Assembly: GCA_035411425.1 (NCBI GenBank)
Contig: DAONSX010000003.1
Location: forward strand, 27,534 to 91,533
Direction of reading: 5' to 3'
Length of the DNA stretch: 64,000 nt
Origin: Bacteroidales bacterium
GTDB lineage: Bacteria > Bacteroidota > Bacteroidia > Bacteroidales > TTA-H9
In this document: piece by piece, positions 18 through 22,967 of the stretch
Layout: every line of letters starts with the position of its first letter
Numbering within the stretch: the first letter of the stretch is position 1
Notes under the pieces: generated by a model
Told to the model about the DNA's origin: nothing
Databases searched by the model: none
Seen by the model: the letters and a program-made list of their open reading frames with translations, nothing else
Program-made: the position numbers and the translations under genes

Positions 18-2669
18 TTGAACAATTCGGATGAATATCGTCCGATTCCGGCCTTTTATTGGAATAACGCCCAAACTTCGATAAAGTCATTTCGTCTTAA
101 AGATACCTTGCATCTCAAAGAAAAAACCTATTCTCATTTTCTGGCCGAGACATCCTCACAACCTAAAGTAAGTAAAAACGCAAATGGCCAATATTATCAG
201 GTTTCTGGGCAAAGAATCGTATTAATGGGAAAAGAAAATGGTGGGATAAAAGAAATTTGGGTTCATCCTTTTATGGCAATGTACGATTATAAAGTCATTT
301 TACAAGCGCCTTCACCTGCTCTGCCTGTTTATCTGGACAGTTTAATACCCGAGATCACCATTCGACCTGGTTGTATAAAACGACACTATCAACTGCAGAA
401 TAACTCCTTGAATGAAATCATCGTAGCCCATCCCGAAAAGGGCATTGCAACAATTCATTATGAATTCGAAGGGGATGAAAAAACTCATCTGTATATAACT
501 TATCAGAGCAATTTTCGTTTGATGTGGCCCTACAGCGAAAAAGCTTCGAGGATTTTGCGTTACAGCAAGGGAAACAAAAACAGATTTCACATAATTACAG
601 ATTTTACACAGGACTATGTCTGTTTGACAGGTTCACAAAGAATTCCTCATCAAACGAAAGCCGGTCATTTTAATGGCTTCACCTTTGATGAACAGGCAAG
701 AATTATTGGCCATGTTACTGATGAGGCGATAGCATCGTGTTGCTATGACTATTTACTCAAAAGCAAAGATACCCTCGACTTTCTAATTATTGCCGGAAGC
801 GAAGGATTACAGGCAGCCCTCGACAATTTTTCTTCAACAGCAAAAAATTCTGCTCGGTTATCGAGCGAGCACGAAAAAGCGATGAAAAATCTTTACGAAT
901 ATCATCTTCAGATTGAAACACCAGATACACTTTTTAATGAAGCATGGAAATGGTATTTGGCAGGAATAAACAGTTTCTACATAGAAACGCCACAGTTGGG
1001 AAGGTCACTGGTAGCAGGCTTCAATTGGACAGGGACCGGCTGGAATGGAGGCCATCGCATAGATGGAAGACCTGGATATAGTTGGTACTTTGGAAGAGAT
1101 AGCGAATGGTCGGCTTTAGCCATTTTAGACTATGGCGATTTTGAAAAGGCAAAGGATGTCTTAAGCATGTTAAGCGATTATCAAGACCTCAACGGTAAAA
1201 TCTTTCATGAACTAACTACCAGCGGTTTTGTCCATTACGATGCTGCTGATGCCACTCCTTTATATATAGTTCTGGCTTGCCGATATCTTCGCCATACGGG
1301 AGATACGGCTTTTATCCGTTCAATATGGCCTAACTTACTCCAAGCCTATAAATTTTGCAAATCTACCGATACTGATTACGATCATTTGATCGAGAACACC
1401 AATGTTGGACATGGTTGGGTAGAAGGCGGCCCATTATATGGTTCTCATACTTCACTTTATCTGGCTTCGTGCTGGAATGAAGCTCTAATTGCTATGGCTG
1501 AAATGGCATCAGTGATGAACGAGGATAGCCTCGCCCACGAATGCAGCAAGGAAGCTTATATTGTGAACCATCTCTTGAACGATAGCTTTTACGATACGCA
1601 TGAGCAATCGTGGCGTCAGGGTTTGATGAAAGATGGCACTTGGCATAAATTAGAATCGGTCATGCCAGCAGTTCCAGCATTATTTGGTCAAATGAAGGAG
1701 GAGTCTCTCCAAACATTTATTGAGAAAACATTGGGAAATGAATATATTACTAATTATGGCAGCAGAATTTTGAGCAATCTTAGTCCATACTATCATCCCC
1801 ATGCTTATCACGCCGGCTCGGTATGGCCGCTCTTTACCGGATGGCATGCTATGGCAGCTTACAAAGCGAATGCTTTCGAAACTGGATTTAGGCTTATCAT
1901 GGCGAACATGAATATTTTTCGTCATTGGGGCTACGGATATTCAGAGGAGGTATTGAACGGAGATGTATATGAACCTGCAGGTGTATGTCGGCATCAATGC
2001 TGGTCGGAGACAATGGCCATTCAGCCTGTGGCAGAAGGAATGCTGGGCTTCGAACCAAATGCCTTGCAAAATATCCTTCGGATTGCACCAGCATTGCCTC
2101 CCCACTGGAATTCAATCCATATCCATAATCTCCGATTCAAAGAATCGCTCATTCATTTTACTATGCATACCGATGACTTCAAACAAAGCTGGCAATTCAA
2201 TATCCATGGAAATTGTTCGCCCCAAGTTATTTTTGCTCCTTATTTCCCAGTAGGAAGCCGGATAAATTCGATAGCAATAAATGGACAATCGGCTCATTTC
2301 GAAGAGGTTATAAATGAAAGATATACTCAAATTGTAATTTATTTCAAGCTGGATAATTCTACTCGGATAGAAATAAATTATGAACCAGGGATTTCTATTA
2401 TCCCAGAAATTAACTTACCCGAGCCAGGAGACAAAGCAGATGGACTGAGAATCATACAATCTTATATAGTTGATTCGGTTTATGTTATAGAAATTGAAGC
2501 ACCACAAAACACTCAACATACTATTAAAATAAAGACATCAGGCGAAAGGCAGTATTTGATTGACGGTGGGTATTTAAAGAGTTGCAAAGATAGAATTATA
2601 GAAATCGGAGTCAACTTTCAGGATTCCGAAAAACCTTATGTAAGAAAAAAAATCAGGCTTAAGATATAA
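18..2669 (+). CDS. Glycoside hydrolase with an (alpha/alpha)6-barrel, glycogen-debranching / amylo-alpha-1,6-glucosidase-like. The frame is open to the left window edge, so the 5' end may be missing.
   Basis: 883-aa ORF. The core motif GRPGYSWYFGRDSEWSALAILDYGDFEKAKDVL...DATPLYIV is typical of GDE_C/six-hairpin glycosidases. No signal peptide is visible. There are no in-frame stops in nt 3-17, and the ORF-track start is a TTG. Confidence 0.6.
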   Translation: MNNSDEYRPIPAFYWNNAQTSIKSFRLKDTLHLKEKTYSHFLAETSSQPKVSKNANGQYYQVSGQRIVLMGKENGGIKEIWVHPFMAMYDYKVILQAPSPALPVYLDSLIPEITIRPGCIKRHYQLQNNSLNEIIVAHPEKGIATIHYEFEGDEKTHLYITYQSNFRLMWPYSEKASRILRYSKGNKNRFHIITDFTQDYVCLTGSQRIPHQTKAGHFNGFTFDEQARIIGHVTDEAIASCCYDYLLKSKDTLDFLIIAGSEGLQAALDNFSSTAKNSARLSSEHEKAMKNLYEYHLQIETPDTLFNEAWKWYLAGINSFYIETPQLGRSLVAGFNWTGTGWNGGHRIDGRPGYSWYFGRDSEWSALAILDYGDFEKAKDVLSMLSDYQDLNGKIFHELTTSGFVHYDAADATPLYIVLACRYLRHTGDTAFIRSIWPNLLQAYKFCKSTDTDYDHLIENTNVGHGWVEGGPLYGSHTSLYLASCWNEALIAMAEMASVMNEDSLAHECSKEAYIVNHLLNDSFYDTHEQSWRQGLMKDGTWHKLESVMPAVPALFGQMKEESLQTFIEKTLGNEYITNYGSRILSNLSPYYHPHAYHAGSVWPLFTGWHAMAAYKANAFETGFRLIMANMNIFRHWGYGYSEEVLNGDVYEPAGVCRHQCWSETMAIQPVAEGMLGFEPNALQNILRIAPALPPHWNSIHIHNLRFKESLIHFTMHTDDFKQSWQFNIHGNCSPQVIFAPYFPVGSRINSIAINGQSAHFEEVINERYTQIVIYFKLDNSTRIEINYEPGISIIPEINLPEPGDKADGLRIIQSYIVDSVYVIEIEAPQNTQHTIKIKTSGERQYLIDGGYLKSCKDRIIEIGVNFQDSEKPYVRKKIRLKI

Positions 2670-2735: not shown

Positions 2736-3875
2736 TTACTTGATAGAATATGTCATAGTAGCCAGGTCGACCTTAACGGTGTAGGTACCTGCTGTAGGAG
2801 GACAAGGGATAGAAAGTGGGTCAGGTTCACTTTCAGTAGGTCTAAGAACAAGTGGCCCACCAGTTGAAGTTCCAGTTTCATTGGTTCCATACTGTGGAGC
2901 CCATTGTCCGAGAACCTCAATGAATTTCAGCCATTTACCACCACCGCCAAGCTCTATGCTTATCTCGAAGATGCCCGGAGCCAGTTTGGTCATTGGGATA
3001 GCATTATTGTTATCCCAAGCGGCAGGAGTACCATCTCCAAGGATATAAAGCTGTGGAGAAGCTGGAGTAACGGTATAATTCAAATTAGCCGTATCTGCTA
3101 CTATCCGATAGTCACCACTGACATCTGGTGCAGGGATAGCAGGAGGATCGGTAACTGTTTCATCGGGACGATATGACAGAGGTCCTGACTGCCAGGTTCC
3201 CGAGGCATCGGTTCCCCATTGCGGCGCCCAGGCACCCAGACAGGAAATGAATTTGATATACATATCCGTTCCGGTGGTTAAGTTCGCCACGATAGCAAAC
3301 TTTCCTTCGCCTATCCAGCTCATTTCCAATGCTTTCATATTATCCCAACCCACTTCAGTTGCACTACCAAGCAGGTAGATGGGTTTAATATGGATAGCTG
3401 CAGAATAAGGCGTGATTGAAACCTTCACTACATCGGAATAGGTACTCTCGGCACCCGCATTGTTTACGATAAATGAGTTGACCCTAAAAAAGATGTCATG
3501 AGGTACATCGGGTTGCACTCCCAAAATGGTAAGCAAAATGTTATTCAAGCCTCCATAGTTGATGGCAAAGGATACATCTTCTGAGCTAACCATGGTATAA
3601 GGCTTGGGAAAAGTAGCCGAGGTATCCATTTGCAGGATATATTTGGTAGCCGGAAGATTATTTAGATTGTAAACCGTAGGGCTCCAAATTATATTAAAGG
3701 TATTATCCTTTTGAGACTCGAGGAGCACCAACTGACTGCCATTGGCAGGTGTAGAAATCACAGGCTTCTGGGTGAGACTCATATCGAGTACCGGATCTTT
3801 ATCTTCATCGGAGCAAGCCGCAAAAAAGAGGCTGAGTCCCATCAATATCGATAAAAAAGCAACAGGTTTCTTCAT
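2736..3875 (-). CDS. SusE/SusF-like outer-membrane glycan-binding lipoprotein
   Basis: Lipoprotein signal with the lipobox Cys in LSLFFAAC-SDE. Two C-terminal beta-sandwich repeats (YLLGSATEVGWDN...WAPQWGT and LYILGDGTPAAWDNN...WAPQYGT). Lies directly downstream of susD. Confidence 0.75.
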   Translation of the reverse strand: MKKPVAFLSILMGLSLFFAACSDEDKDPVLDMSLTQKPVISTPANGSQLVLLESQKDNTFNIIWSPTVYNLNNLPATKYILQMDTSATFPKPYTMVSSEDVSFAINYGGLNNILLTILGVQPDVPHDIFFRVNSFIVNNAGAESTYSDVVKVSITPYSAAIHIKPIYLLGSATEVGWDNMKALEMSWIGEGKFAIVANLTTGTDMYIKFISCLGAWAPQWGTDASGTWQSGPLSYRPDETVTDPPAIPAPDVSGDYRIVADTANLNYTVTPASPQLYILGDGTPAAWDNNNAIPMTKLAPGIFEISIELGGGGKWLKFIEVLGQWAPQYGTNETGTSTGGPLVLRPTESEPDPLSIPCPPTAGTYTVKVDLATMTYSIK

Positions 3876-3897: not shown

Positions 3898-6111
3898 TTA
3901 ATATAGATCTGAATTCTGTTTGAGGTTAGGATTGGCTCCTAAGTCGGATGAAGGAATGGGGAAGAGATTGAGATGAGGGGAAGTTTTGGTTCCATCGGGT
4001 ACTTTCCCTTTCCATGGCCATACATACGATCCATCAGTAAACTGACCAAAGCGGATCAAATCGGTACGGCGATGTCCTTCCCAATAGAGTTCACGCGCTC
4101 GCTCATCGAGCATAAAATCCAGTGTTAGTTTACTGGCTGTGATATTTCCACTAGTTTCTCCACCATAAGCACGTGTACGAACTTCATTCACATAATTCAG
4201 AGCATCACTTAAACTGCCATTGGTAGCTCCACGCAACACAGCTTCGGCATACATCAGGTAAACATCGGCAAGACGGAACATGGGGAAATCTGTATCCACA
4301 TAAGTGAGATCACTTCCTGAGGTTCCATTTCGTTTTATGTTTTTCCATTTGGTAACTGCCCAACCATTGGTGAAATCTTCTATATTATTGATTTCGAGTG
4401 ATTGTCCGTCAGTGAAAAACATGGCACGATGATCATAGCTGGTGCGTTCTACAACATAAGTATAATCTGGAATGCCAAGTTTAAGACTAATCATATAAGT
4501 GCCACTTTGGGAAATAGGAATATTATCTCCTCCATAATCGAGTATTCCATCTGCTCCAGTATCACCCAAGTTAATATCCCATGCATTGTTAGCTCTAAAT
4601 TTGAAGCTGCCAGCAGTAAGATCAAGTGTAATGGTCCATAACTTACTTGAAGGATCATAAGTCATCATTTGGTCGGAATCCCAGCCGCCGGGAGTTGCAT
4701 CACCGATAATACCCCAATCGGTTTTCACCACGGTATAAGTTAAGGTATTTAGATCGACATTAATTTTGTAATAACCAGGATCAGCTGCTACTATGTTGGC
4801 ACCATTAGCATCGAGGGTACCATCCGCACCATCATCTCCATAATTTATATCCCAATTGGGGCCTGTTGTAAACTTAAACTCAGTATTGGCATCGGGAAAA
4901 TATAAATAACCTTCGTAAGTATTATCGCTTAGTTTAGAAGCTAAGACAGTTTCAGTATTAGAAGGATCCCATCCTTGATAACTGCCAGGTACATAAATTA
5001 TAGGATAGTCGGCTTTTTTTAGTTTTTTGCCGGGATTAGGTGAAATACGCAAGCTTGAAGTAGCATCAGGATAAAATTTATAGACAAAAGCCTTAGTTGC
5101 ACGTGTGCCACCCCAGCCTCCATTAACACCATACTTCATTGGATCCATTTTTCCACCAATAGCAGCATGTACCAGAAAAGTCGTTCCTCCCCAAGTCTGC
5201 GTTCTCATTCCATCGAAATTGATCGAGAAAATGACCTCGTTGGAACGATCATTATCAGCCATAAAGAGATGTTCATAATTTGGCTCGAGGATATAACCCG
5301 CATCGATGATTTTTTTGGTATAGGTTACTACCTCATCGTAATGTTTCGCGCCAGTATATACTTCAGAGTTGAGGTACAATTTAGCCAAAAGCATCCAAAC
5401 AGCGGCTTTATCGGCGCGTCCATATTCATTTTGGCGAGCATCTATCATCAAAGGTTCTATCTCAAGCAATTCCTTTTCGATGTAATCGAAAAGATCTTTA
5501 CGGCTAATTTGAGGTGGGAAGAATGAGCCTACAGGGTCTTTTTCGGTCACAAAAGGAACTGTCCCAAACATATCGAGAGCATGATAATAGCTCAAAGCAC
5601 GCATAAACCGGGCTTCAGCACGATAATGTTCGATATCGGTACGAAGGCTGCCAGTAACATTGCGTTCATCGAGTTTAGCATCGGTTGTTTCTCTGATAAA
5701 TTCATTACAAAGAGAAATTTGATAGAATATACGATAGTAGAAGGCGGAGATAAAAACATCGCCGGCACCCCATGTCTGCCAATGGAAATCCTTTATTGTC
5801 TGGTCGTTCCATCCAATAATGGCTTCATCGGTAGTGAGTTCCTGGTGATACCAATACCCACGCAGATATTGGCCAAATCCTTCGTCAATACCACTAATAT
5901 CGGGCATGCCCGAAGGGCCCTGTTGACCGGAGACAGCCAAGCCGGCATAAATTTTAGCAAGAATCTGCTTGTAGGCTTTAGGATTTTCATATACCTGGGC
6001 TGAAGTAACAACATCCTTGTCAATTGGAACTGTATCGAGGTCCTTGGTGCAGGAGGCCAAAACAAAGCTCATACCTGCAAAAATTAAAAAGAATTTACTG
6101 AACTTATTCAT
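3898..6111 (-). CDS. susD: SusD/RagB-family nutrient-binding lipoprotein, unusually long at 737 aa, carrying an internal pair of SusE/F-like beta-sandwich modules
   Basis: Lipobox FVLASC. Canonical SusD regions are present (YRAEARFMRALSYYHALDMFG, FPMFRLADVYLMYAEA, RARELYWEGHRRTDLIRF). An about 200-aa insert at aa ~350-556 has the duplicated pattern FKF..NWDIN.GD.GADG.LD..G.NI. Confidence 0.9.
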   Translation of the reverse strand: MNKFSKFFLIFAGMSFVLASCTKDLDTVPIDKDVVTSAQVYENPKAYKQILAKIYAGLAVSGQQGPSGMPDISGIDEGFGQYLRGYWYHQELTTDEAIIGWNDQTIKDFHWQTWGAGDVFISAFYYRIFYQISLCNEFIRETTDAKLDERNVTGSLRTDIEHYRAEARFMRALSYYHALDMFGTVPFVTEKDPVGSFFPPQISRKDLFDYIEKELLEIEPLMIDARQNEYGRADKAAVWMLLAKLYLNSEVYTGAKHYDEVVTYTKKIIDAGYILEPNYEHLFMADNDRSNEVIFSINFDGMRTQTWGGTTFLVHAAIGGKMDPMKYGVNGGWGGTRATKAFVYKFYPDATSSLRISPNPGKKLKKADYPIIYVPGSYQGWDPSNTETVLASKLSDNTYEGYLYFPDANTEFKFTTGPNWDINYGDDGADGTLDANGANIVAADPGYYKINVDLNTLTYTVVKTDWGIIGDATPGGWDSDQMMTYDPSSKLWTITLDLTAGSFKFRANNAWDINLGDTGADGILDYGGDNIPISQSGTYMISLKLGIPDYTYVVERTSYDHRAMFFTDGQSLEINNIEDFTNGWAVTKWKNIKRNGTSGSDLTYVDTDFPMFRLADVYLMYAEAVLRGATNGSLSDALNYVNEVRTRAYGGETSGNITASKLTLDFMLDERARELYWEGHRRTDLIRFGQFTDGSYVWPWKGKVPDGTKTSPHLNLFPIPSSDLGANPNLKQNSDLY

Positions 6112-6131: not shown

Positions 6132-9125
6132 TTAAAATATTAAATTAAGACCCAGAACGAATACCCTGGTACGAGGATACATGCTATAGTCGATCCCGCT
6201 GAATATTTCAGGATCGAGACCTTTGTAATTGGTAATGGTAAACACGTTATTTACCGTAGCCGAAAGACGCAGTTTAGCGCTGCTGTTGAACAATTTATCG
6301 AAAGTATAGCCTATGGCTAAATTATCCAATTTGAAGAAGGAAGCATTTTTGATGTAATAATCGGAGAGATATTGAGGAACTTTAAAGCCTGTTTCGGCAA
6401 CATCGGCACTTACATTGGCCAGATAAGGTCCCTCGGGGCGGTATAGACGTTCATAGGTAGAATTATTAGAGCTGAAGTTATCATATACATAGTTGCCTAT
6501 ATTAGCCCGACCGCTAAATATGAAATCCCAGTTCTTGTATTGCATACGGCTGTTGATGCCCAGATAGACATCGGCTGCAGGTTTTTTATAATGATATCTA
6601 TCATCATCGTTGATTTTTCCATCTTTATTGCGGTCAACATAAAGCCCTTCGATGGGTTTTCCATTGGCATCGTAAACCTGTTCATAAACGAAGAAACTGT
6701 TAGAAGGGTAACCTACCGAATGAATTTGGATGGTATTGCCAACGCCACCTGCAATGGTACCTACAAGTACTCCTAAATAGTTAGGATCGTCACTTGCTGT
6801 TAGTTTGGTAATTTTATTTTTGTTATAGGTAGCATTGACACCCAAATCCCAGTAGAAATCTGGACCAACAAAAGGTTTCCCATTGATGGCAAACTCCACT
6901 CCTTTATTTTCGAGGTCGCCTATATTGGTGGTGATGTAGTTGGAAAGATTAGAACCTGCCGGCACAGGAATGAAGTTGATAAGATCTTTGGTTTTTCTCC
7001 AATAAACATCCAGCGAACCATAGATTCTATCGTTAAGGAAACCATAATCGAGTCCGATATTGGTAGTTGTGGTTTCTTCCCATTTGATATTCGGGTCATA
7101 ACCTTCGGGACGCAAGGTGATCAACGTATCTGTCCCCAGAATGTAAGAAGCTGTAGCCCAAGAACTCGTGTAACGAGGTAAATATGGATAGTCATCATTG
7201 GTAATGTTTTGTTGACCTGTGATACCCCAACCCAAACGAAGCTTCAATTGGGATAGGGTTTTCATATTTTTCATCCAAGGTTCATCCATGATTCTCCAGG
7301 CTAAGGCAACCGAAGGGAACAATCCCCAGCGATTATCCTTCGAAAATCTCGAAGAACCATCATCACGCAACGTAAAGGTAAGTAGGTACCTATCGAACAA
7401 GGAATAATTGAACCTCGTAAAGAAAGAAACCAAATAAAATTCACTTTTATTTGAACTTGTATCGAAAATTCTCTTTTGGATAAAGAAAGGTCCATTCAAA
7501 TCGTTGGTCGTTGAATTCGTATCCTCACGATAGAAATGCTGCCATGAATAACCACCCATGACATCGAATTTGCTAAATATGGTGGGAACTTCTTTGACGT
7601 AATTTAAAGTAAAATCGAGCAGTTCATTACGTTTTTCCTGAGTATATTGTGTGTTAGTGCCACCTCCATATTGAGGGTCGAAAGCAAAAGCGGCATTTCC
7701 TGGGACATAAACTGTTCCATTGGTTTTAGAATAATCGAGACCAAGGTTAAGGTTAGCTCTCAATTCAGGAAGGAAGGGCATTTTATAATCGAACTGGGCG
7801 TTTCCTAAGAATCGGCTCACATCAGCATTATCGTGTTTTTGTTCAAGCAGTGCCACTGGATTATCGGTCGCTTGATCCACAGGATTTCCATTGGCTTGAA
7901 GCCAGGTCCAGTATCCACCATAAGCGTTCGAGTCGTGAACTGGTTTGGTGGGATCCATCTGAATGGCCGACCCAATAGCATCTTCATTGGCAAAACGCTG
8001 GTCGATGAACATTCCCTTTCCGTTGAGGTTAATTTTTAGGTTGTCATCGAAAAGAGAAGGATTAAGGTTGAGTCCAAAGGTCGTTCTTTGCATATTGTCG
8101 GTCTTAAGAATGCCATCATAATTGGCATAGCCCACGGAAGCACGATAGGGCAATGCGCCAATGGCACCTGTTGCACTTACCGTATGATCGTGCGCAAATG
8201 ATGAACGGTAAATTTCCTCTTGCCAATCGGTATTGGCATCTCCCAGCAAAGCAAGAACTTCAGGTCTGTTGGCATAGCGTTCATTGATGATGCTCCTGAA
8301 TTGATCACCATCAAAAACTTCACGTTTTTTAGGGATGGTGTAGAGGGAAAAACCTCCGTTATATTCGAATTGAGGAGCTTTTTTGCCAGGAGCTAAAGTA
8401 CCTTTCTTGGTAGTAATGATTATAACTCCATTGGATGCACGATTACCATAGATAGCTGCTGCCGAAGCATCCTTCAGGATGGTAAAGGTTTCGATGTCGT
8501 TAGGATTGATGGTACTCAATGGATCGCGTGTTCCATAAATGGAAGTATTGTCAATAGGCACACCATCGATAACAAAAAGAGGATCGTTGCTTGCCGACAA
8601 TGAAGAACCTCCACGGATACGGATAGTAGCTCCAGCACCTGGCGCACCACTATTGGTAACAATCTGCACACCGGCCGTTTTACCAGCCATCAATTCAATT
8701 GGGTTGGTAATACTTCCACGGTTAAAATCCTGCGTTGTCACTGCAGTAATCGAACCCGTAGCATCTCCTTTTTTCACCTGTCCATATCCTATAACCAATA
8801 TCTGGCTAAGACTGGTGATGGTTGGAGATAGAGCTACATTAAGGGTTTGTGAGGTTTCAATCACAAACTCCTGAGTTTGATAGCCTACAAATGAAAAAGC
8901 AAGAGTAGATCCCTTAGGTACGGTAATACTGTAATTACCGTTGATGTCAGTAACTGTACCTGTAGTAGTGTTTTTCACTACAATGGTAACTCCTGGTAGC
9001 GTGGTTCCATCAGAAGCATCCGTTACTTTCCCCTTTACTGTAAGCTGCTGCGCAAACGAAGGCAGAGCAACAGCCGCAAAAAAGAAAAGAAACAGTACCT
9101 TCAGTAAGTTAGCATGTTTCATCAT
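6132..9125 (-). CDS. susC: SusC/RagA-family TonB-dependent outer-membrane transporter
   Basis: Signal peptide, then a CarboxypepD_reg-like N-terminus (KGKVTDASDGTTLPGVTIVVKNTTTGTVTDINGNYSI), a plug region (IRIRGGSSLSASNDPLFVIDGVP), a long beta-barrel, and a terminal LGLNLIF. Confidence 0.95.
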   Translation of the reverse strand: MMKHANLLKVLFLFFFAAVALPSFAQQLTVKGKVTDASDGTTLPGVTIVVKNTTTGTVTDINGNYSITVPKGSTLAFSFVGYQTQEFVIETSQTLNVALSPTITSLSQILVIGYGQVKKGDATGSITAVTTQDFNRGSITNPIELMAGKTAGVQIVTNSGAPGAGATIRIRGGSSLSASNDPLFVIDGVPIDNTSIYGTRDPLSTINPNDIETFTILKDASAAAIYGNRASNGVIIITTKKGTLAPGKKAPQFEYNGGFSLYTIPKKREVFDGDQFRSIINERYANRPEVLALLGDANTDWQEEIYRSSFAHDHTVSATGAIGALPYRASVGYANYDGILKTDNMQRTTFGLNLNPSLFDDNLKINLNGKGMFIDQRFANEDAIGSAIQMDPTKPVHDSNAYGGYWTWLQANGNPVDQATDNPVALLEQKHDNADVSRFLGNAQFDYKMPFLPELRANLNLGLDYSKTNGTVYVPGNAAFAFDPQYGGGTNTQYTQEKRNELLDFTLNYVKEVPTIFSKFDVMGGYSWQHFYREDTNSTTNDLNGPFFIQKRIFDTSSNKSEFYLVSFFTRFNYSLFDRYLLTFTLRDDGSSRFSKDNRWGLFPSVALAWRIMDEPWMKNMKTLSQLKLRLGWGITGQQNITNDDYPYLPRYTSSWATASYILGTDTLITLRPEGYDPNIKWEETTTTNIGLDYGFLNDRIYGSLDVYWRKTKDLINFIPVPAGSNLSNYITTNIGDLENKGVEFAINGKPFVGPDFYWDLGVNATYNKNKITKLTASDDPNYLGVLVGTIAGGVGNTIQIHSVGYPSNSFFVYEQVYDANGKPIEGLYVDRNKDGKINDDDRYHYKKPAADVYLGINSRMQYKNWDFIFSGRANIGNYVYDNFSSNNSTYERLYRPEGPYLANVSADVAETGFKVPQYLSDYYIKNASFFKLDNLAIGYTFDKLFNSSAKLRLSATVNNVFTITNYKGLDPEIFSGIDYSMYPRTRVFVLGLNLIF

Positions 9126-9453: not shown

Positions 9454-10461
9454 ATGCAAAATAAAGTTACTATCAAAGATATAGCCAAAACATTGGGAGT
9501 TTCTATATCAACGGTATCCAGGGCACTGAAAGATCATCCCGATATCAGTGAATCGACTAGAAATCTCATTAAGAATTTTGCGCAGGAAATCAACTATCGC
9601 CCTAATGTTTTGGCTTTGAGTCTCAGGCGACAAAAAAGCAATACCATTGGACTGATCATTCCCGAAATCGTTCATCATTTTTTTTCATCGGTGATTAGTG
9701 GCATGGAAGACCTCAGCTATCGTGAAGGATACAATATCATTATTTGCCAATCGACAGAAAATCAGTTTCGAGAAGCTACAGCACTTCAAACTTTGATTGA
9801 TCACAGGGTGGATGGAATATTGGTTTCACTGAGCAAATCCACACAAAATTTTTCTCAATTCAAGAAGGCACAGGAAGAAGGTTTCCCCATGGTATTTTTC
9901 GATAGAATTTGCGAAAGTATAGAAACCGATCGAGTAGTCATGGATGATCTAGAAGGAGGTCGCTTGGCAACCGAATACCTGATCAATAAAGGCTGCCAAA
10001 ATATACTTCATCTGGCGGCATCGCCCATTTTACTGATTGGACGTAACCGCCGCGATGGATACCTCCAAGCATTGAAAGATCACAATATCCCAATCAAAGA
10101 AGAACTTATCCTGAAATGTGATACTCAGGAAGAAGTTTCAACCCTTAGAAACCATCTTTATGAACTTTTACCGCAAATTGATGGGGTTTTTGCGGTAAAT
10201 GACAGTACTGCCATCGCCATGATTCAAATACTGAAAAAAAAAGGCTATCGAATTCCTCAAGATATTAAAGTAGTAGGTTTTGGCGATGGACCTAATGCTA
10301 CTATAGTAGAACCCGCCCTCACCACAATAGAACAAAAAGGTTACGACATGGGCCGTGAATCCGTAAGACTGCTCCTGCAGCGCCTCAACAATCCATCGGC
10401 TTCCATCAGTTATCAAACCCGTGTTTTCCCTCCTACACTCAAGATCAGAGAGTCTGCCTGA
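9454..10461 (+). CDS. LacI-family transcriptional regulator
   Basis: N-terminal HTH VTIKDIAKTLGVSISTVSRALK, followed by a periplasmic-binding-protein-like sugar-binding core. 335 aa. Confidence 0.92.
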   Translation: MQNKVTIKDIAKTLGVSISTVSRALKDHPDISESTRNLIKNFAQEINYRPNVLALSLRRQKSNTIGLIIPEIVHHFFSSVISGMEDLSYREGYNIIICQSTENQFREATALQTLIDHRVDGILVSLSKSTQNFSQFKKAQEEGFPMVFFDRICESIETDRVVMDDLEGGRLATEYLINKGCQNILHLAASPILLIGRNRRDGYLQALKDHNIPIKEELILKCDTQEEVSTLRNHLYELLPQIDGVFAVNDSTAIAMIQILKKKGYRIPQDIKVVGFGDGPNATIVEPALTTIEQKGYDMGRESVRLLLQRLNNPSASISYQTRVFPPTLKIRESA

Positions 10462-10933: not shown

Positions 10934-12193
10934 ATGAAACATTTATTTCCTTTGCTCAGTTTAGTTTTACTTGTTAGCTTATTCAACATAGGCTGCAGTA
11001 AAGATGAAGATGAAGAATTACCCAAAGATCTGGTAGTTAATTACACTGCCAGTTTTACCGACGTAGCTTCTACACTGCAAGATTTTATCATGAAAGCACA
11101 AGTGTATGAAAGTTCTAATTTTGAATCATTAACTGCCGATCAAGGCAAGAAGATCATCAACGATTACATTACAGCTGGTGAAAATTTCATCAAGAGTGTG
11201 GATGATTATGAAAAATACAAGATTGGCACCAAAAATTCTTCCCCATGGTTAAAGAATTCGATGGATTCACCCTGTAGCATGTACGATGCTATCCCTGATG
11301 TGGGGAATGGAATATCACCAGGATTCGTAAAAAGTGTTGGTGATTTGATAGCTGACACAAAAGGCGATGTAAAAAAGATTGAGAAAAAATTTAACGATGG
11401 CGAGATAAGTGAAGAAGTTTTTACGGCGGCTCTCGATTCGTTAAAGAAAATAAAAACATTGAAGGCAGCGAATTTTGGGATGAGCTCCATTATTGGAGCT
11501 GGAACATCGGGTTTAACAGGGGCAGCTATTTTTAGTGTAGGGGGAATCGGTATGGCCATGTCTGCGCCTGCCCTGCTGGGAGTAACAGCCGCAGGAGTTG
11601 TTGTTGGTACGGGATATTATTTGATATCCAATTGGTGGTCAGGAATTAAGAAAAATGGACAGGATGACAAATTAGGCGAGATTGTAGTGGCTTCAGGAAA
11701 AATTGGGGATCCTATTCCTACAACTATGCTCAGTAATGGCGCCAGTCTAACTGTTGCTATTTCAGGTTACGCTCCGGTTTATATTCCAGCATTCATCCTA
11801 CCTTCGCAAGGAATAAAGAAAACCCTCGAAATTACTCCGATTAAATTAGAAGACGCCACTCCTACAACAAAGGTAGAAGTATGCACCCTAGAAGAAGAAT
11901 TTACATCTGAAAACTGTGAAGATGTACTTTATGTTACTGCCACACCCTCACCTATCGACCCAGGCCCAGGCGAAGGCGTTACAGTAACTGCCACCATTTT
12001 CCCTCCCATAGCAGGATGCCAAATTTCATTCAGTATTGTTGGAACAGATGGATACACTAAAAGCGAAACGCATGAAACCGATGCTAACGGAAAAGCATCT
12101 TTCTTCATCCCTGGTGGCGCCGAAGGAGTTTTTGATATCGTGACCATTACTACTTCGAATGGCCATACTTATACTGTAACTTATACATTTTAA
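10934..12193 (+). CDS. Hypothetical lipoprotein with an internal glycine-zipper hydrophobic hairpin and a C-terminal Ig-like domain
   Basis: Signal peptide plus lipobox (LFNIGC-SKDEDEE). Gly/Ala-rich hydrophobic segment GMSSIIGAGTSGLTGAAIFSVGGIGMAMSAPALLGVTAAGVVVGTGYYLISNWW. C-terminal beta-rich region VTVTATIFPP...GKASFFIPGGAEG. I recognise no family. Confidence 0.6.
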   Translation: MKHLFPLLSLVLLVSLFNIGCSKDEDEELPKDLVVNYTASFTDVASTLQDFIMKAQVYESSNFESLTADQGKKIINDYITAGENFIKSVDDYEKYKIGTKNSSPWLKNSMDSPCSMYDAIPDVGNGISPGFVKSVGDLIADTKGDVKKIEKKFNDGEISEEVFTAALDSLKKIKTLKAANFGMSSIIGAGTSGLTGAAIFSVGGIGMAMSAPALLGVTAAGVVVGTGYYLISNWWSGIKKNGQDDKLGEIVVASGKIGDPIPTTMLSNGASLTVAISGYAPVYIPAFILPSQGIKKTLEITPIKLEDATPTTKVEVCTLEEEFTSENCEDVLYVTATPSPIDPGPGEGVTVTATIFPPIAGCQISFSIVGTDGYTKSETHETDANGKASFFIPGGAEGVFDIVTITTSNGHTYTVTYTF

Positions 12194-12215
12194 AATTATC
12201 TAATTGTCTTATTAT

Positions 12216-12245
12216 AAAAAAGCCTTCGTTGCCGAAGGCTTTTTT
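12216..12245 (+). terminator. Rho-independent terminator
   Basis: agccttcg (12221-12228) pairs with cgaaggct (12233-12240) across the loop ttgc. It is flanked by an A-run and a T-run (tttttatt). Confidence 0.75.
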
Positions 12246-12277
12246 ATTGCCTTGTTCACTTGTTCAATTATTTAACT

Positions 12278-12285
12278 TATATTTG
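12278..12285 (+). promoter_or_regulatory. Bacteroidota-type -7 promoter box (TAnnTTTG)
   Basis: TATATTTG lies 7 nt upstream of the ATG at 12293. It falls inside the ORF-track TTG extension (12260), which argues for the shorter start. Confidence 0.45.
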
Positions 12286-12292
12286 TTTCTCT

Positions 12293-15200
12293 ATGAAAAC
12301 AAGGCATTTATTAAGAAAGACATTTATTATTGGGCTGGTGGTTTTTAGTCTTCCCAGATTATATTCCCAAAATGGCTTCACTGAGAATAAAGGACAATGG
12401 GATTCTAACGTTCTCTTCTTCTTGCAACCCCAAGCAGATGTCGCAGTATTTATTGAAGCAGGTGCCATAACCTTCAATATTCAACTATTACGGCATGACG
12501 AAACACCAAATTTTGAAAATATTAGCGCTAAAACTAATCACGAAGGTGTTAAAGGACATGCATTTCGAATTATTTTCGAAGATGCTGATTTTTCAAATAT
12601 CACTGCTTTAAGACCAAAACCCGAACTACTCAATTATTTTCTTGGAAAAAATCCCGAAAAATGGAGTACCGGTGTAAAAATCTTTAATGAATTATACATC
12701 TATGATGCATACAAGAATATAGACCTTAAAATTATTTCCGATATTGGAGGTATTAAATACGAATTCATCATTCATCGAGGAGGGCGGGTCAAAGATATTG
12801 CCATTCGGTATGATGGATTGGAGAATATATCATTGAGCAATGGCCAACTTATTTTGAGTACATCATTGGGAGAAATTATCGAAGAAGCTCCGAAAGTCAT
12901 AGTTGAAGACAAAGGAAGCACATTTGTGACTGGGTGTCAATATCAACTCGAAGCCAACAGGATAAAATTTCATTTAGATCCATCATTCCTCAACTCTGAC
13001 AAAATTGTTATTGATCCCCGTTTGGTATTTTCCACGTATTCAGGAAGCGAGGCCGACAATTGGGGTTTTACTGGTACTTACGACGAGGCAGGGAATGTAT
13101 ATTCCGGAGGAATTGTTTTCAATATTGGATATCCAGTAAGTTTAGGAGCTTATCAACAAAGTTTTGGTGGTGGGTGCGACATAGGCATTATCAAATACGA
13201 TTCTACGGGAACAAATCGCATCTATGCTACTTATTTGGGTGGACTTTATGCCGATCTGCCGCATAGTTTAATCGTCAATACATCCAACGAACTGGTTATT
13301 TTTGGTACCACTGGTTCGCCCAACTTTCCAGTTACGCCATCGGCTTACGATACAAGTTTCAACGGAGGGGATGCTGTTAATTATGCATCTTTAAATTTTC
13401 CTTTAGGCTCCGATATTTTTATTGCTAAATTCAGTGAAGACGGCTCACAATTAATAGCTTCTACTTTTATAGGAGGCAGCGAAAACGATGGCTTAAATTT
13501 TCGCTCACGCTATGCATCCATGCTTATGACAGGCAACGATACTTTATACTATAATTATGGAGATGGTGCCCGTGGCGAAGTAATCACCGATCCGCAAGAT
13601 AACATTTATATTGGCTCCACCACATTTTCGAACGATTTTCCGATAACTGCCGCAACTTTTCAACCCTCTTATAAAGGGAAACAGGAAGGTGTGGTATGTA
13701 AATTTGACAGGACATTGAGCTATTTGAACTGGAGCAGTTATTTAGGCGGATCGAACGATGAAGGTATATTTTCCATCGATATCAACTCTTATGGCGATTT
13801 ATACGTTACTGGTGGCACCACCAGCAGCGATTTCCCCGTAACATCTGGAGCCTATCGAACCCAATTTAATGGAGGAAGTGCCGATGCGTTTATTTCGTGC
13901 ATTTCGGCTAATGGAGTAAATTTAAAGGGATCGACCTTTTGGGGATCGCTATCTTATGATCAGGGATATTTTGTGCGTATCGGGCCCGATGATGAAGTAT
14001 ATGTATTCGGGCAAACTAAAGCCTCTGATTCGTCCATGATGATCGATGCCCTTTATGGCCAGCCAAACAGTGGACAATTCATATCGAAATTTTCACCTCT
14101 ACTCGATGAACTGAGATGGAGTACAGTAGTTGGAAAAGGCGATGGCCAACCCAATATTTCTCCAACGGCATTTATGGTCGATGTATGTGGGAGGATTTAT
14201 TATTCGGGATGGGGAAGAATATGGGGTAACAGTTATGTAAATGGTAACTGGTATTTATGGGGTACCCCTTTTGGAACTCACGGCCTTGCGGTTACTCCCG
14301 ATGCTGTTCAACCCATCACCGATGGACAAGATTTTTATATAGCCATATTATCATCCGAAGCGGCAGGATTAGATTATGCTACTTTTTTTGGAGAACAGCA
14401 CTATTCGGGTTGTTCATTCAGTGGTCATGATCATGTGGATGGAGGCACAAGCCGCTTCGATCCGAGAGGAAACATCGTTCAATCGGTTTGTGCCTCATGC
14501 GGAGGCTGTCAGCAATTCCCAACTTATCCCAATCCTGGTGCATGGTCGAATACAAACCATTCAACCAACTGCAACAATGCCATATTTAAGATTCATTTGA
14601 AAAGTGATATTGCCACAGCCAATTTCATCATCCCTCAAAGTGGTTGCGCTCCATACGAAGTTCAATTCCAAAATACCAGCGTTGGTTTGTCTTTTTTGTG
14701 GGATTTTGGAGATACGATCTCGGGAGCCGCCAATTACTCCAGTTTGAAAAATCCATCTCATACTTATCACCAAGCCGGATTATACACTATTACCCTCATA
14801 AGCTTTTTACCAGGCAGTTGCAATTCATCGGATACGATTCAGAAAAACTTGCTTATTCTAAACGATACTACAATGTGGCTCGATAGCTTGGTGATTTGCC
14901 CGAATAATTCTGTTCAGATTGGAATTTCTCCTTCCCCAGATACGAATGTATGCTATCAATGGATTCCTGATACTTGCCTCAGTAACCCTGCTATTTCCAA
15001 TCCTTTCGCATTCCCGCAAACTACCACAACTTACATGTGCTTGGTTACACATCCCGGATGCACCGATACCCTCCTTCAAACCCTCACAGTGATTCCATTC
15101 ATTATTTCGGCAGGCGAAGATACCGTAAGTTGTTCCAAATGGTTTACCCTACAAGGTTCATCGGAAAGTGCAGGTACTCTATTCCATTGGTCATCTTTAA

Positions 15201-17887
15201 AAAATTTTCTCGATACATTGAACTTATCTCCCTTTGATAGCACTGCTTTCATCGATCTAACCAGCTACTCAGGAAATACATTTTATCTAAAAGCTTATAA
15301 TTCAATTGGATGTGAATCTATCGATAGTGTAAAAGTAATTTATGGAGGGACAAGCATTTCGACCAGTTCAGACCGTTTAGCTTGCTATAACGACACTTTA
15401 CATCTACATGCCTATAATTTATATCCTAACAATATATTAACATGGGCATGGCAACCCGAAGCCTATATTCTTACAGGCGCTCACAGTCCGGACCCCATAG
15501 TCAAGCCCGATACAAGCACATGGTTCTTTGTGAGTGCCTCATCTCTCTATGATTGCCAAACTACGGATAGTATTTATATTCAGGTTAGCCATATATTGGC
15601 CGACTTATCCGTCCATCCGACAAACTGTTACGATACTTGCGACGGATGGGCAAAAGTTAATCCTTCAGGTGGATTTTCTCCTTATTCGATTTTATTTAGC
15701 AATGGAATAGAAGATTCCGTTGCTGCAAATCTTTGCTCAGGACAATATTGGGTAAGCATTATAGATTCTATTGGTTGTGACACCTTAATAGAATTTCGAA
15801 TCGATTCCCCTTCGCCATTTTTCATAAATTACGAACTACAGCATGTAAGCTGTCATGGCGATTCCACTGGTTTTATTCATCTAACCGTAATGGGAGCAAC
15901 TCCTCCCTATGAAGTGTTGTGGTCGAATGGAGATAGTGGACTTTACCTCAATAATCTACCTGCAGGCATATACACAGCCCAAATATTCGATGCCAATCAA
16001 TGTGATACTCTATTGAACTTTTCCATTCAACAGCCCGAAGCCTTTGGCGTTGAAGCCGAGATCAATCAAGTCAGTTGTTTTGGATATTCTGACGGTAGCA
16101 TCCATTTACAAATCAGTGGGGGAATTTCACCCTATTCGGTTATTTGGAATAATGGCATGCAAGGAGCATCGATCAATGGATTACATGCAGGTACATACAC
16201 AGCTTTATTGACCGACAGCCTTCAATGTGATACATCCATGACATTCATCCTTACCGAACCGCCTCCTTTCTTTATTCAAGCCATTGTCGTGCCGGTAAGC
16301 TGCCCGGGATACCACGACGGGAGCGTCGAACTTCTATTGCAAGGAGGCAGTCAACCATATTTCATACATTGGGTTACAGGAGATACTTCTCATCATCTCG
16401 AGAACCTTCCGGTCGGATTTTATTCCGTTCGGATAATAGATGCTCATCAATGTATTTTCGATACGGGTTTCATCATCGATGAGCCAGTACCGTTTTCCAT
16501 AATAGCCGAAATTACACCCGTAACTTGCAAAGGATATGCTGATGGTAGCATAATGATCGAAGCGAGTGGAGGTAACCCGCCATATACTTTGACATGGTCG
16601 AATGGTGCAACGGGAAATTTTTTGTCAAATCTAACTGGTGGCTTTTACACTTTAACCCTTTTCGACGCTCATTCATGTGATACCACTATCACATTCCTTG
16701 TTCCCGAGGCTCACCAACCTCTAAATGTATCCTATTCGAGTTATCAGCCTTCCTGTTGGGGTTATCAGGATGGGGCTTATAAAATTTTACCAGAAGGCGG
16801 AATGCCTCCCTACAGCATTTTTTGGGGAATGGATGAAATATCAGACAGCATAGGCAACTTACCCGCTGGAATTTATTCATTCGAAATTTCCGATGCCTAT
16901 AAATGCAGGGTCAATATCACGGATACTCTTTCCTCCCCTACTCCCTTCATGATTCAATCCATTATTCATCATCCCAGCTGTGCATTTGGGGTTCCTGACG
17001 GAAGCATTCAACTTCTCGTCTCAGGAGGCACACCCTCTTATTATTTTCATTGGTCAACCGGTGAACAAACTTCCTTACTGCAATATATTCCTGCTGGAAC
17101 TTATGAGGTAGATCTAATCGACTCTCATCAATGCGACACCAACCTTTCTTTCACTCTATTAGCTCCGTCGGATTTTCAAATCATAAAAAAAATTTCTCAC
17201 TGTTCCTGTTTCGGAAACAATGATGGAAGCATAGCAATAGAAATTGCAGGAAACCAGTCCGACTATCAAATACTTTGGGGAGACGGCAGTAATGAAAACA
17301 TCAGGCATAACTTCTATGCCGGAATTTATCCTTTTCGGGTATCCGATAAAAACGATTGTACAAAGTATGATACTGCTGTGATAGAACAACCCGAGGCCAT
17401 CGAAGTCATCAAGAGAGTTACACCCGTAGGATGCGAGAGTGATTCGGACGGGAAAATAGAACTGAGCATTGGAGGAGGCAGCCCGCCTTTCACAGTGATT
17501 TGGCTGGAAGGTTTTCAAGGGGAAATGTTGTATGAACTTCCCAAAGGAATTTATACCTTTCAAATCATTGATAACAACAATTGCTTAGTAAAGGACACAG
17601 TCATAGTGTGGCAGAAAGATTGCTGCATCGATATTCCCAATGTAATTACCCCTAACAGCGATGGTTTTAATGATAAATTTGTAATTAAAGGCATCGAAAA
17701 CTTCCCCAGTAATGAATTGATTATATACAACCGCTGGGGTAAAGAAATCATTCAGTTCAAAGGTTATAAAAATGAGTGGGATGGGAGGAATGCAAATGGT
17801 GAGCAGGTGGCCGAGGGGGTTTATTATTACGTTTTGCATCTTACTGGCGGCCGTTATTTTCAGGGATCTATCACTGTAATACGATAA
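12293..17887 (+). CDS. Giant T9SS-sorted cell-surface adhesin: SBBP beta-propeller repeats, a PKD domain, 9 SprB-like repeats and a type-B (gliding-motility-associated) C-terminal sorting domain
   Basis: Signal peptide MKTRHLLRKTFIIGLVVFSLPRLYSQ. SBBP-type repeats (SSDFPVTSGAYRTQFNGGSADAFIS). PKD motif (FLWDFGDT...HTYHQAGLYTITL). Repeats with the pattern C.G..DGSI.....GG.PPY...W. CTD IPNVITPNSDGFNDKFVIKGIE...YNRWG...WDGR...GVYYYV. Confidence 0.9.
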   Translation: MKTRHLLRKTFIIGLVVFSLPRLYSQNGFTENKGQWDSNVLFFLQPQADVAVFIEAGAITFNIQLLRHDETPNFENISAKTNHEGVKGHAFRIIFEDADFSNITALRPKPELLNYFLGKNPEKWSTGVKIFNELYIYDAYKNIDLKIISDIGGIKYEFIIHRGGRVKDIAIRYDGLENISLSNGQLILSTSLGEIIEEAPKVIVEDKGSTFVTGCQYQLEANRIKFHLDPSFLNSDKIVIDPRLVFSTYSGSEADNWGFTGTYDEAGNVYSGGIVFNIGYPVSLGAYQQSFGGGCDIGIIKYDSTGTNRIYATYLGGLYADLPHSLIVNTSNELVIFGTTGSPNFPVTPSAYDTSFNGGDAVNYASLNFPLGSDIFIAKFSEDGSQLIASTFIGGSENDGLNFRSRYASMLMTGNDTLYYNYGDGARGEVITDPQDNIYIGSTTFSNDFPITAATFQPSYKGKQEGVVCKFDRTLSYLNWSSYLGGSNDEGIFSIDINSYGDLYVTGGTTSSDFPVTSGAYRTQFNGGSADAFISCISANGVNLKGSTFWGSLSYDQGYFVRIGPDDEVYVFGQTKASDSSMMIDALYGQPNSGQFISKFSPLLDELRWSTVVGKGDGQPNISPTAFMVDVCGRIYYSGWGRIWGNSYVNGNWYLWGTPFGTHGLAVTPDAVQPITDGQDFYIAILSSEAAGLDYATFFGEQHYSGCSFSGHDHVDGGTSRFDPRGNIVQSVCASCGGCQQFPTYPNPGAWSNTNHSTNCNNAIFKIHLKSDIATANFIIPQSGCAPYEVQFQNTSVGLSFLWDFGDTISGAANYSSLKNPSHTYHQAGLYTITLISFLPGSCNSSDTIQKNLLILNDTTMWLDSLVICPNNSVQIGISPSPDTNVCYQWIPDTCLSNPAISNPFAFPQTTTTYMCLVTHPGCTDTLLQTLTVIPFIISAGEDTVSCSKWFTLQGSSESAGTLFHWSSLKNFLDTLNLSPFDSTAFIDLTSYSGNTFYLKAYNSIGCESIDSVKVIYGGTSISTSSDRLACYNDTLHLHAYNLYPNNILTWAWQPEAYILTGAHSPDPIVKPDTSTWFFVSASSLYDCQTTDSIYIQVSHILADLSVHPTNCYDTCDGWAKVNPSGGFSPYSILFSNGIEDSVAANLCSGQYWVSIIDSIGCDTLIEFRIDSPSPFFINYELQHVSCHGDSTGFIHLTVMGATPPYEVLWSNGDSGLYLNNLPAGIYTAQIFDANQCDTLLNFSIQQPEAFGVEAEINQVSCFGYSDGSIHLQISGGISPYSVIWNNGMQGASINGLHAGTYTALLTDSLQCDTSMTFILTEPPPFFIQAIVVPVSCPGYHDGSVELLLQGGSQPYFIHWVTGDTSHHLENLPVGFYSVRIIDAHQCIFDTGFIIDEPVPFSIIAEITPVTCKGYADGSIMIEASGGNPPYTLTWSNGATGNFLSNLTGGFYTLTLFDAHSCDTTITFLVPEAHQPLNVSYSSYQPSCWGYQDGAYKILPEGGMPPYSIFWGMDEISDSIGNLPAGIYSFEISDAYKCRVNITDTLSSPTPFMIQSIIHHPSCAFGVPDGSIQLLVSGGTPSYYFHWSTGEQTSLLQYIPAGTYEVDLIDSHQCDTNLSFTLLAPSDFQIIKKISHCSCFGNNDGSIAIEIAGNQSDYQILWGDGSNENIRHNFYAGIYPFRVSDKNDCTKYDTAVIEQPEAIEVIKRVTPVGCESDSDGKIELSIGGGSPPFTVIWLEGFQGEMLYELPKGIYTFQIIDNNNCLVKDTVIVWQKDCCIDIPNVITPNSDGFNDKFVIKGIENFPSNELIIYNRWGKEIIQFKGYKNEWDGRNANGEQVAEGVYYYVLHLTGGRYFQGSITVIR
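15600..17610 (+). repeat. Nine tandem, diverged coding repeats of about 225 nt (75 aa), SprB-like, inside the adhesin gene
   Basis: Each unit has a conserved Cys...DG(S/W)I...GG.(S/P)PY...W..G......L..G.Y......D...C pattern. The units are readable in the translation from HPTNCYDTCDGWAKV to TPVGCESDSDGKIEL. Confidence 0.8.
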
Positions 17888-22378: not shown

Positions 22379-22963
22379 TTATCGCAGAGGAATTTTGTAA
22401 GTAAATCCGAAAGAAGGAGAAATAAAGGGAGAACTATTGGCAATAGGAGGAGAAGGCGCAATAAGGCCCATGCTCAAATTTTCAGAAATATCGAAAGATG
22501 AAAGGTGAGCATCTACACTAGCATCTACGGCATTTAAAATATAGATGAATCCGGCGATAATGTAACTGAGTTCCATGTTTCGACGGTAATAATCTCTTTG
22601 AACGCGTAGCTGATCGGCAGTATATTTCACCGCATAATCGTTGGGTGGGTCGCCTGTAAGGTTGTTAATCTTGAAGTTATAGGCATCTTTAAACTTGTGA
22701 TATTCATCTCCATTGATGATGGCAAAATATCCGGTTGCTGCAAAGCCAGTGTATATGATGGGAATTTTCCAGTACTTATGATTATAAGCCTGTCCCATAC
22801 CCGGTAAAACCAACGATAATATGGTAGCCGTTCGGGGAGAGCGTGATGGTCGAACTCGAACAACAGTATCCTGCTGGGCTGAGCATATAGAAGGGAATAA
22901 AAACAAAATACAAAGGAAGAGAATTACATTTCTGAATCCTGCCATAGAAAGAAAGTTTGGCAT
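22379..22963 (-). CDS. DUF5683 domain-containing membrane protein
   Basis: Signal peptide, then LSLVLPGMGQAYNHKYWKIPIIY. It sits immediately after parB, as is usual in Bacteroidota. Confidence 0.75.
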   Translation of the reverse strand: MPNFLSMAGFRNVILFLCILFLFPSICSAQQDTVVRVRPSRSPRTATILSLVLPGMGQAYNHKYWKIPIIYTGFAATGYFAIINGDEYHKFKDAYNFKINNLTGDPPNDYAVKYTADQLRVQRDYYRRNMELSYIIAGFIYILNAVDASVDAHLSSFDISENLSMGLIAPSPPIANSSPFISPSFGFTYKIPLR

Positions 22964-22967
22964 GGAG

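Follow-up and report, generated by a model that had tools for sequence, protein, structure and literature searches.

A SusD-like lipoprotein carrying an inserted tandem of predicted SusE/SusF-type modules in environmental Bacteroidota

The closest described counterparts of the protein analysed here are SusD of Bacteroides thetaiotaomicron (PDB 3CK7-3CKC) and the SusD-superfamily protein 3JYS of Bacteroides vulgatus, and those of the modules it carries are the lipoproteins SusE and SusF (4FCH, 4FEM, 4FE9). SusE, SusF and SusG of B. thetaiotaomicron associate with the SusC-SusD transporter (SusCD) only dynamically and loosely (bioRxiv 10.64898/2026.09.16.752182). Within the same system, the nearest precedent for a starch module placed in a loop is the alpha-amylase SusG, in which a CBM58 module is inserted in domain B (PMC11267923); a 2026 review describes SusD-like proteins themselves as lacking any sequence similarity to carbohydrate-binding modules (PMC13543919). 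We analysed a 64,000-nucleotide stretch of Bacteroidales DNA (contig DAONSX010000003.1, positions 27,534 to 91,533; hereafter the window), which encodes a 737-residue SusD-like lipoprotein with a pair of predicted β-sandwich modules inserted in its helical body. This lipoprotein shares its fold with B. thetaiotaomicron SusD and 3JYS, has equivalents of the ligand residues and of the flexible loop of the former, and is encoded directly after susC; it differs from them in its β-sandwich tandem of about 205 residues, in the presence of a LacI-type regulator and in its environmental hosts. The inserted modules form an X25-type tandem, as do those of SusE, SusF and SusE-like lipoproteins of about 345 residues, but they come without the PF14292 domain and without SusE's own lipid anchor, and are embedded in a SusD loop. 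SusG differs in turn, its host being a glycoside hydrolase family 13 (GH13) enzyme with a single CBM58, whereas here the host is a transporter lid and the guest an X25 tandem. We read the protein as a putative alpha-glucan SusC/SusD lid (surface glycan-binding protein A, SGBP-A) that combines a canonical starch site with an acquired X25/SusE tandem in a surface loop, and, from its sequence and predicted structure, we put the probability of this reading at roughly 70%.

The 737-residue protein displays the features of the SusD/RagB family, namely the family signature, a TPR-based helical fold, a lipobox and a gene position after susC. Pfam assigns it to SusD_RagB (E = 1.3e-34, with the C-terminal stretch at residues 558-733) and also to SusD-like_3 (E = 5e-8). 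Among solved structures, 3jys aligns with E = 3.7e-106 in two blocks, residues 40-346 and 559-734, and B. thetaiotaomicron SusD with E = 5.7e-87, again in two blocks (48-349 and 560-734); between the blocks 3jys has just 14 residues, and B. thetaiotaomicron SusD has 44. In close insert-less relatives, which measure 526-532 residues, 205 residues of the window protein are gapped. The original prediction, made from the DNA alone, had proposed a single contiguous insert at about residues 350-556 (positions 4444-5064, minus strand) of a 737-residue SusD, and the two-block alignment bears this out. It was also right that the protein is longer than a usual SusD, though the excess is about 205-210 residues and not the 150-200 first estimated. 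The NCBIfam model for SusD, NF033071, scores 443.3 bits in two stretches split by the insert, under its cutoff of 725, and we therefore regard the protein as a relative of the named Bacteroides SusD and not as its equivalog.

The full-length AlphaFold2 model, computed from 63 sequences, has a mean predicted local distance difference test score (pLDDT) of 85.4, and its SusD body superposes in Foldseek with a template modelling (TM) score of 0.86 on 3jys and 0.80-0.83 on B. thetaiotaomicron SusD. Low pLDDT at about residues 59-78 marks the flexible loop equivalent to T58-D73 of B. thetaiotaomicron SusD. The ligand residues of that protein, R81, W98, N101, Y296 and W320 (bioRxiv 10.64898/2026.09.16.752182), correspond in the alignment to 3ck7 to residues R84, W101, N102/D103, W307 and W333. 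Across the 63-homologue alignment, R84, W101, N102, D103 and W333 are invariant, and so is Cys21 of the lipobox, the predicted site of lipidation; W307, a tryptophan replacing the tyrosine, is the majority residue at its position and appears in neither the invariant nor the near-invariant list. The SusD core resembles the starch-specific type, and a role in the binding and import of alpha-1,4-glucan is predicted for it.

The insert departs from the SusD body 17 residues past the site residue W333, and the body resumes at S558; the junction reads KFYPDAT[...]YDHRAMFF in the window protein and MFDDITG-TDNRAMFF in an insert-less relative. A variable linker leads out of the body (mean pairwise identity 29.9%, against 68.7% for the SusD core) and is followed by two modules that adjoin each other with no linker between them (Table 1). 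The pair of repeats of about 93 residues that had been noticed in the DNA, together with their shared motif around GWD, FKF and NWD, can be read in both modules, and the repeats align to each other with 25/52 identities (48%, E = 2e-12). Searched with the Pfam family profiles for SusE/SusF-type X25 modules (PF16411 and PF22058, with the gathering threshold as pass mark), the insert matches SusF_SusE in two stretches with 57.1 bits (cutoff 27.5) and X25_BaPul_like with 34.1 bits (cutoff 27). Each module alone also lies above the SusF_SusE cutoff, module 1 with 31.2 bits (E = 3.3e-7; X25_BaPul_like E = 2.9e-6) and module 2 with 40.0 bits (E = 6.3e-10). The profiles of two classical starch-binding domains, CBM_20 and AMPK1_CBM (the latter from AMP-activated protein kinase, where it binds glycogen), gave no match above threshold, the sole hit being AMPK1_CBM with E = 0.13 and 13 bits (cutoff 26.8). 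The N-terminal SusE domain, PF14292, has no Pfam match in the SusD protein and has one in the neighbouring 379-residue protein; its absence from the SusD protein argues for insertion of a cassette and not for a whole-gene fusion.

The full-length model shows the insert as strands throughout, at pLDDT above 90, and an AlphaFold model of the insert alone, likewise all strands, reaches a pLDDT of 93.7 and a predicted TM score (pTM) of 0.85. The only Foldseek matches of this model in the PDB at E ≤ 0.001 are 7rpy, 4fch, 4fe9 and 4fem, which are Sca5 X25-2, SusE and SusF. SusE, in two entries, superposes over both modules with 225-230 aligned columns and TM scores of about 0.51-0.54. Next come an amylase N/F domain, the AmyP starch-binding domain (marginal, E = 0.033) and a pullulanase X25 module, and all listed matches are alpha-glucan-binding modules. 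Model and Foldseek thus confirm the β-sandwich fold, and with the domain profiles they identify the insert as two predicted β-sandwich modules of SusE/SusF (X25) type. The suggestion that the modules are akin to starch-binding carbohydrate-binding modules stands for X25_BaPul_like and for the starch-binding domains retrieved by Foldseek; it fails for CBM_20 and AMPK1_CBM.

The top Foldseek match is X25-2 of Ruminococcus bromii Sca5 (7rpy, E = 2.5e-7), which, with domain 2 of Sas20, shares with the insert a tandem of X25 modules and their conserved tryptophans. In Sca5 and Sas20 an X25 module on its own fails to bind, and a single platform is made up of four tryptophans (PMC9112005). By that precedent the two modules of the insert might close on one clamshell site of high affinity for long helical alpha-glucan in place of two separate sites of low affinity, an arrangement with which the missing inter-module linker would agree, as would the pTM of the insert, which suggests a defined mutual orientation. 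However, the global superposition on Sca5 X25-2 is poor (TM 0.34/0.29), and SusE superposes better (0.54/0.51). The cassette is homologous to SusE-like cassettes, and the modules of SusE bind independently (PMC9112005); variants of SusD with one and with three modules, described below, likewise argue for modules as units. Sca5 and Sas20 also differ in setting, as parts of a Gram-positive amylosome scaffoldin with a single shared site. We consider a joint clamshell site unlikely and prefer the lid with an acquired SusE-type tandem.

To trace the cassette, we ran a module profile derived from the insert over 84 homologous loci. Like modules resemble each other across the two protein types: module 1 of SusD and module 1 of the SusE-like proteins are on average 41% identical, and the second modules 42%. 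The two modules within SusD share just 28% identity, and cross pairs with SusE-like modules reach 27%. Internal duplication within SusD is rejected on these values, each module being closer to its SusE-like counterpart than to its partner. The window cassette further aligns with residues 156-343 of a 344-residue SusE-like lipoprotein from another genome at 62% identity over 189 residues (E = 7e-83), a range that comprises everything past the N-terminal SusE domain of that protein. With the insert as query, HMMER retrieved 2792 matches from 1.84 billion representative proteins, 391 of them below 1e-30. Among these representatives, many proteins of 345-355 residues match the whole cassette in a single stretch at 50-58% identity, at positions of about 157-350, and those proteins in the 84 loci that have this length and arrangement are SusE-like. 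Other matches are multi-module SusF-like proteins and GH13 amylases with the cassette appended.

The like-with-like module identities and the colinear 62% match lead us to the view that the insert is a SusE-type two-module cassette taken up whole; judged by sequence, it is the C-terminal module pair of a SusE-like lipoprotein. This supports the earlier proposal that modules normally found on separate lipoproteins have been fused into SusD. The same proposal had pointed to the SusE/F-like lipoprotein encoded downstream in the window as sharing the repeat pattern, and here the outcome is divided, since the window's own SusE-like protein is only distantly similar and the close likeness is to those of other genomes. 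Recent copying from the SusE-like gene of the window itself was accordingly rejected as the origin of the insert (34% identity over 62 residues, E = 1e-4). In a neighbour-joining tree the SusD inserts separate from the SusE-like cassettes, but a single origin is recovered in only 6/100 bootstraps, and in a per-module tree module 1 of SusD is interleaved with SusE-like module 1. Cassettes of SusD and SusE-like proteins from the same locus are 47-50% alike, against 41-42% across loci (L005-L084), a hint that adjacent genes have undergone conversion or that cassettes have passed between them more than once.

Within the modules, the tryptophan of GWD, the lysine of FKF and the tryptophan of NWD are the best-conserved side chains, kept in 87-91% of 224 modules drawn from SusD inserts and SusE-like proteins. 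In X25 modules the sugar site is a platform of conserved tryptophans (PMC9112005). Between relatives about 84% identical at the nucleotide level, the ratio of nonsynonymous to synonymous substitution rates (dN/dS) takes values of 0.065-0.08 in the modules and of 0.029 in the core; the modules are under strong purifying selection. Because the tryptophans and the lysine are conserved, selection is purifying and the genomic context is one of alpha-glucan use, a multivalent binding lid can reasonably be inferred as the predicted functional outcome. Each module would bind alpha-1,4-glucan on a platform of two tryptophans, and the lid would carry up to three sites, which would let it capture polymeric glycogen or starch with greater avidity and keep the chains at the entrance of the transporter. 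A surface enzyme would then cut the polymer, and the lid would close once the oligosaccharide had been handed to the canonical site. Being fused, the parts would stand in a fixed 1:1 ratio and in proximity, which in B. thetaiotaomicron depend on the dynamically associating SusE and SusF. No insertion or deletion in SusC correlates with the insert (no alignment column shows a gap-frequency difference above 0.7). This result, with the exit of the insert past W333, weakly supports modules that point away from the SusC interface.

The modules might instead be non-binding and work as a spacer, or dock a surface glycoside hydrolase or a SusE-like protein to SusCD, or they might tune lid opening or the size of the oligosaccharide admitted. 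β-Sandwich domains in lipoproteins of polysaccharide utilisation loci (PULs) frequently serve as spacers, and the locus keeps a separate SusE-like protein. The loose association of accessory proteins with SusCD in B. thetaiotaomicron, moreover, makes built-in docking conceivable (bioRxiv 10.64898/2026.09.16.752182). Yet the conserved positions, two tryptophans and a lysine, are those expected of a sugar platform, not of a surface for protein contacts, the appending of the cassette to GH13 amylases is what would be expected of a binding module, and the absence of a correlated SusC indel also speaks against this explanation, which we judge improbable relative to glycan binding by the lid.

The distribution of the architecture was surveyed in a scan of one genome per GTDB species, in which more than 598 loci matched; the counts that follow are from the best 80. 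The insert is common: 63 of these loci encode a two-module SusD, one a three-module and one a one-module protein, 14 have no module and one is cut by a contig end. In a collection of 5.8 billion proteins, the best 120 clusters at 90% identity hold proteins mostly of 720-745 residues that are 58-94% identical to the window protein, and the architecture thus recurs in at least 120 such clusters. The nearest locus is that of Bacteroidales bacterium UBA5762, with 94% protein and 84% nucleotide identity. Three-module SusDs of 844-853 residues, in which the second module is duplicated, occur in L062 (8965-11526, Prolixibacteraceae, 853 residues), P0107 and P0112. The one-module SusD, with 629 residues and a type-2 module, is encoded in a Polaribacter metagenome-assembled genome (L083, 8983-10872), where the next gene specifies a three-module SusE-like protein. 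The hosts are environmental and include uncultured Bacteroidales, Prolixibacteraceae, Lentimicrobiaceae, Saprospiraceae/Lewinellaceae, Chitinophagales and Ca. Sulfidibacterium; Neolewinella aurantiaca (Saprospiraceae/Lewinellaceae) is a cultured host among them.

The unusual length of the reading frame would, taken by itself, be compatible with an artefact, either a chimeric assembly or susD and a SusE-like gene wrongly called as one. The insert nevertheless keeps the reading frame and lies within the protein, SusD sequence flanking it at either end; purifying selection acts on it, and its architecture recurs across the species-level loci and protein clusters just described. The exact 737-residue protein is moreover public (for example HNQ59133.1), originates from Bacteroidales metagenome-assembled genomes and is present on 148 contigs from several sources. 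We practically discount an artefact.

Over 521 columns of the SusD core, insert-less proteins are 60-70% and insert-bearing proteins 62-70% identical to the window protein. A tree of this core gave no support (0/100 bootstraps) to the insert-less SusDs as a separate clade, which was rejected, as was a single gain defining one clade; repeated loss, gain or recombination is required. With insert-less proteins interspersed and forming no clade of their own, presence and absence of the cassette have changed repeatedly. A further-reaching possibility, which we hold only tentatively, is that a SusE-type cassette is mobile and lands repeatedly in the SusD loop past W333, being swapped between adjacent PUL genes and giving zero to three extra sites. 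The fused modules would in that case cooperate with the canonical site, in a self-contained lid that partly dispenses with SusE and SusF.

Several observations weigh against a lid with an acquired, functional starch-binding tandem. A PDB sequence search with the insert matched only BT3088 SGBPdex, a component of the dextran utilisome (9SJE, 9SJI), with E = 0.011, or 5.6e-6 when a profile of 24 sequences was used. BT3088 differs from the protein studied here in being a separate lipoprotein of a dextran system, and its similarity to the insert is weak and partial. SusE and SusF were not recovered in this search, either with the single sequence or with the 24-sequence profile. With BT3088 as the sole match, the link of the insert to SusE and SusF rests on Pfam and Foldseek, and any residue-level equivalence of the W/K/W positions to the SusE and SusF sites is putative. 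Closely related SusDs, furthermore, do without the insert. The SusE-like gene is kept in 46/60 informative two-module loci, so that the gain from extra valency in the lid is not self-evident. The same count led us to reject the insert as a general replacement for SusE; the 14 loci without the SusE-like gene are mostly from Saprospiraceae.

Saprospiraceae and Chitinophagales loci also encode SusF-like proteins of 585-591 residues with five tandem type-2 modules. In L048 and L052 the five-module protein replaces the usual SusE-like gene beside an insert-bearing SusD, and L025 and L033 encode both.

In the window, susC precedes susD on the same strand with a gap of 20 bases, and its product has plug and barrel domains (Table 1). 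The 379-residue SusE-like lipoprotein has the lipobox FAAC followed by SDEDKD, and its best PDB match is BT3088 SGBPdex (E = 2e-13). Its modules belong to a longer, divergent subtype with the motif WAPQ[W/Y]G; in most other loci the neighbouring SusE-like protein shares the subtype of the SusD insert, unlike in the window locus. For the hydrolase gene at the left edge, the nearest PDB sequence is 7vma, an archaeal-type glycogen debranching enzyme (E = 2.8e-10); a full-length version of 1132 residues is encoded in L001 (13440-16838), a locus 94% identical, with a weak DUF4960-like region at its N terminus. This (alpha/alpha)6 hydrolase is the sole enzyme gene of the locus, which has no GH13 gene, and the next gene in L001 encodes ribosomal protein L19. 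A homologous locus, by comparison, comprises genes for a GH65 enzyme, a HAD-family hydrolase, an MFS transporter, LacI, SusC, this SusD, a SusE-like protein and two GH13 enzymes. The divergent arrangement of the LacI gene is found in L001 and L004 as well. By its gene content, the genomic context is predicted to be one of alpha-glucan utilisation, and the window locus is an unusually minimal example.

Table 1. Positions of the susD-like gene, its parts and associated genes (window coordinates unless a locus is named; aa, amino acids)
Feature	Position	Strand	Basis
susD-like gene, 737-aa lipoprotein with inserted cassette	3898..6111	-	Open reading frame translation, Pfam, PDB matches
Signal peptide and lipobox L-A-S-C (Cys21), then TKDLD	6049..6111	-	Read from translation
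SusD core, N-terminal part, aa 22-347	5071..6048	-	Alignment to 3ck7
Variable linker out of SusD body, aa 350-368	5008..5064	-	Model pLDDT about 67-78
Module 1, aa 369-464, predicted X25/SusE-type β-sandwich, W381/K413/W420	4720..5007	-	Pfam, model
Module 2, aa 465-557, predicted X25/SusE-type β-sandwich, W477/K504/W511	4441..4719	-	Pfam, model
SusD core, C-terminal part, aa 558-737	3901..4440	-	Alignment to 3jys residues 318-497 and 3ck7 residues 356-524
susC-like TonB-dependent transporter, 997 aa, upstream of susD	6132..9125	-	TIGR04056 (779 bits), TIGR04057 signature
SusE-like surface lipoprotein, 379 aa, N-terminal SusE domain and two divergent modules	2736..3875	-	Pfam SusE, SusF_SusE
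Glycoside hydrolase, (alpha/alpha)6 domain, cut by left edge of window	18..2669	+	Pfam MGH1-like_GH, DUF608, GDE_C
LacI-family regulator, divergent from susC operon	9454..10461	+	Pfam LacI, Peripla_BP_1
Five-module SusF-like proteins	L025 13913-15670; L033 10645-12420; L048 11226-12989; L052 11266-13038		

Beside the LacI gene, positions 10934-17887 (plus strand) encode a 419-residue protein with only a weak Big_1 match and an 1875-residue protein with DUF7948, PKD, five SprB repeats and a CHU_C type IX secretion signal, a pair that is conserved in L001. A ParA/ParB chromosome-partition pair with a DUF5683 gene lies at 22379-24678 (minus strand). Elsewhere in the window the genes (RecN-like, UvrA, TamB, a sigma-54 activator and others) appear to serve ordinary chromosomal housekeeping.

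The architecture is widespread and conserved in environmental Bacteroidota and apparently uncharacterised. The original prediction had allowed that the insert might prove both common and already characterised. It is common, but the literature that could be searched, whose coverage is partial and gives no proof of absence, yielded no published description or characterisation of a SusD into which X25/SusE modules are inserted. The architecture is already visible in precomputed Pfam annotations, and HNQ59133.1 carries no annotation beyond "RagB/SusD family nutrient uptake outer membrane protein". SusD is usually treated as a single-domain helical lid; here accessory starch modules, predicted to bind, are built into the lid itself, a binding capacity that annotation by length or as a single domain misses. 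The cassette could mark alpha-glucan use when PUL substrates are predicted for Bacteroidota of wastewater, sediment and marine settings. Relatives with zero to three modules amount to a natural experiment on valency and proximity in polymer capture, a question that in B. thetaiotaomicron is complicated by the dynamic association of SusE, SusF and SusG with SusCD. If the loop past W333 is indeed a landing site for the cassette, these proteins would be the first SusDs with built-in binding modules and would provide a natural series relating lid valency to glycan capture.

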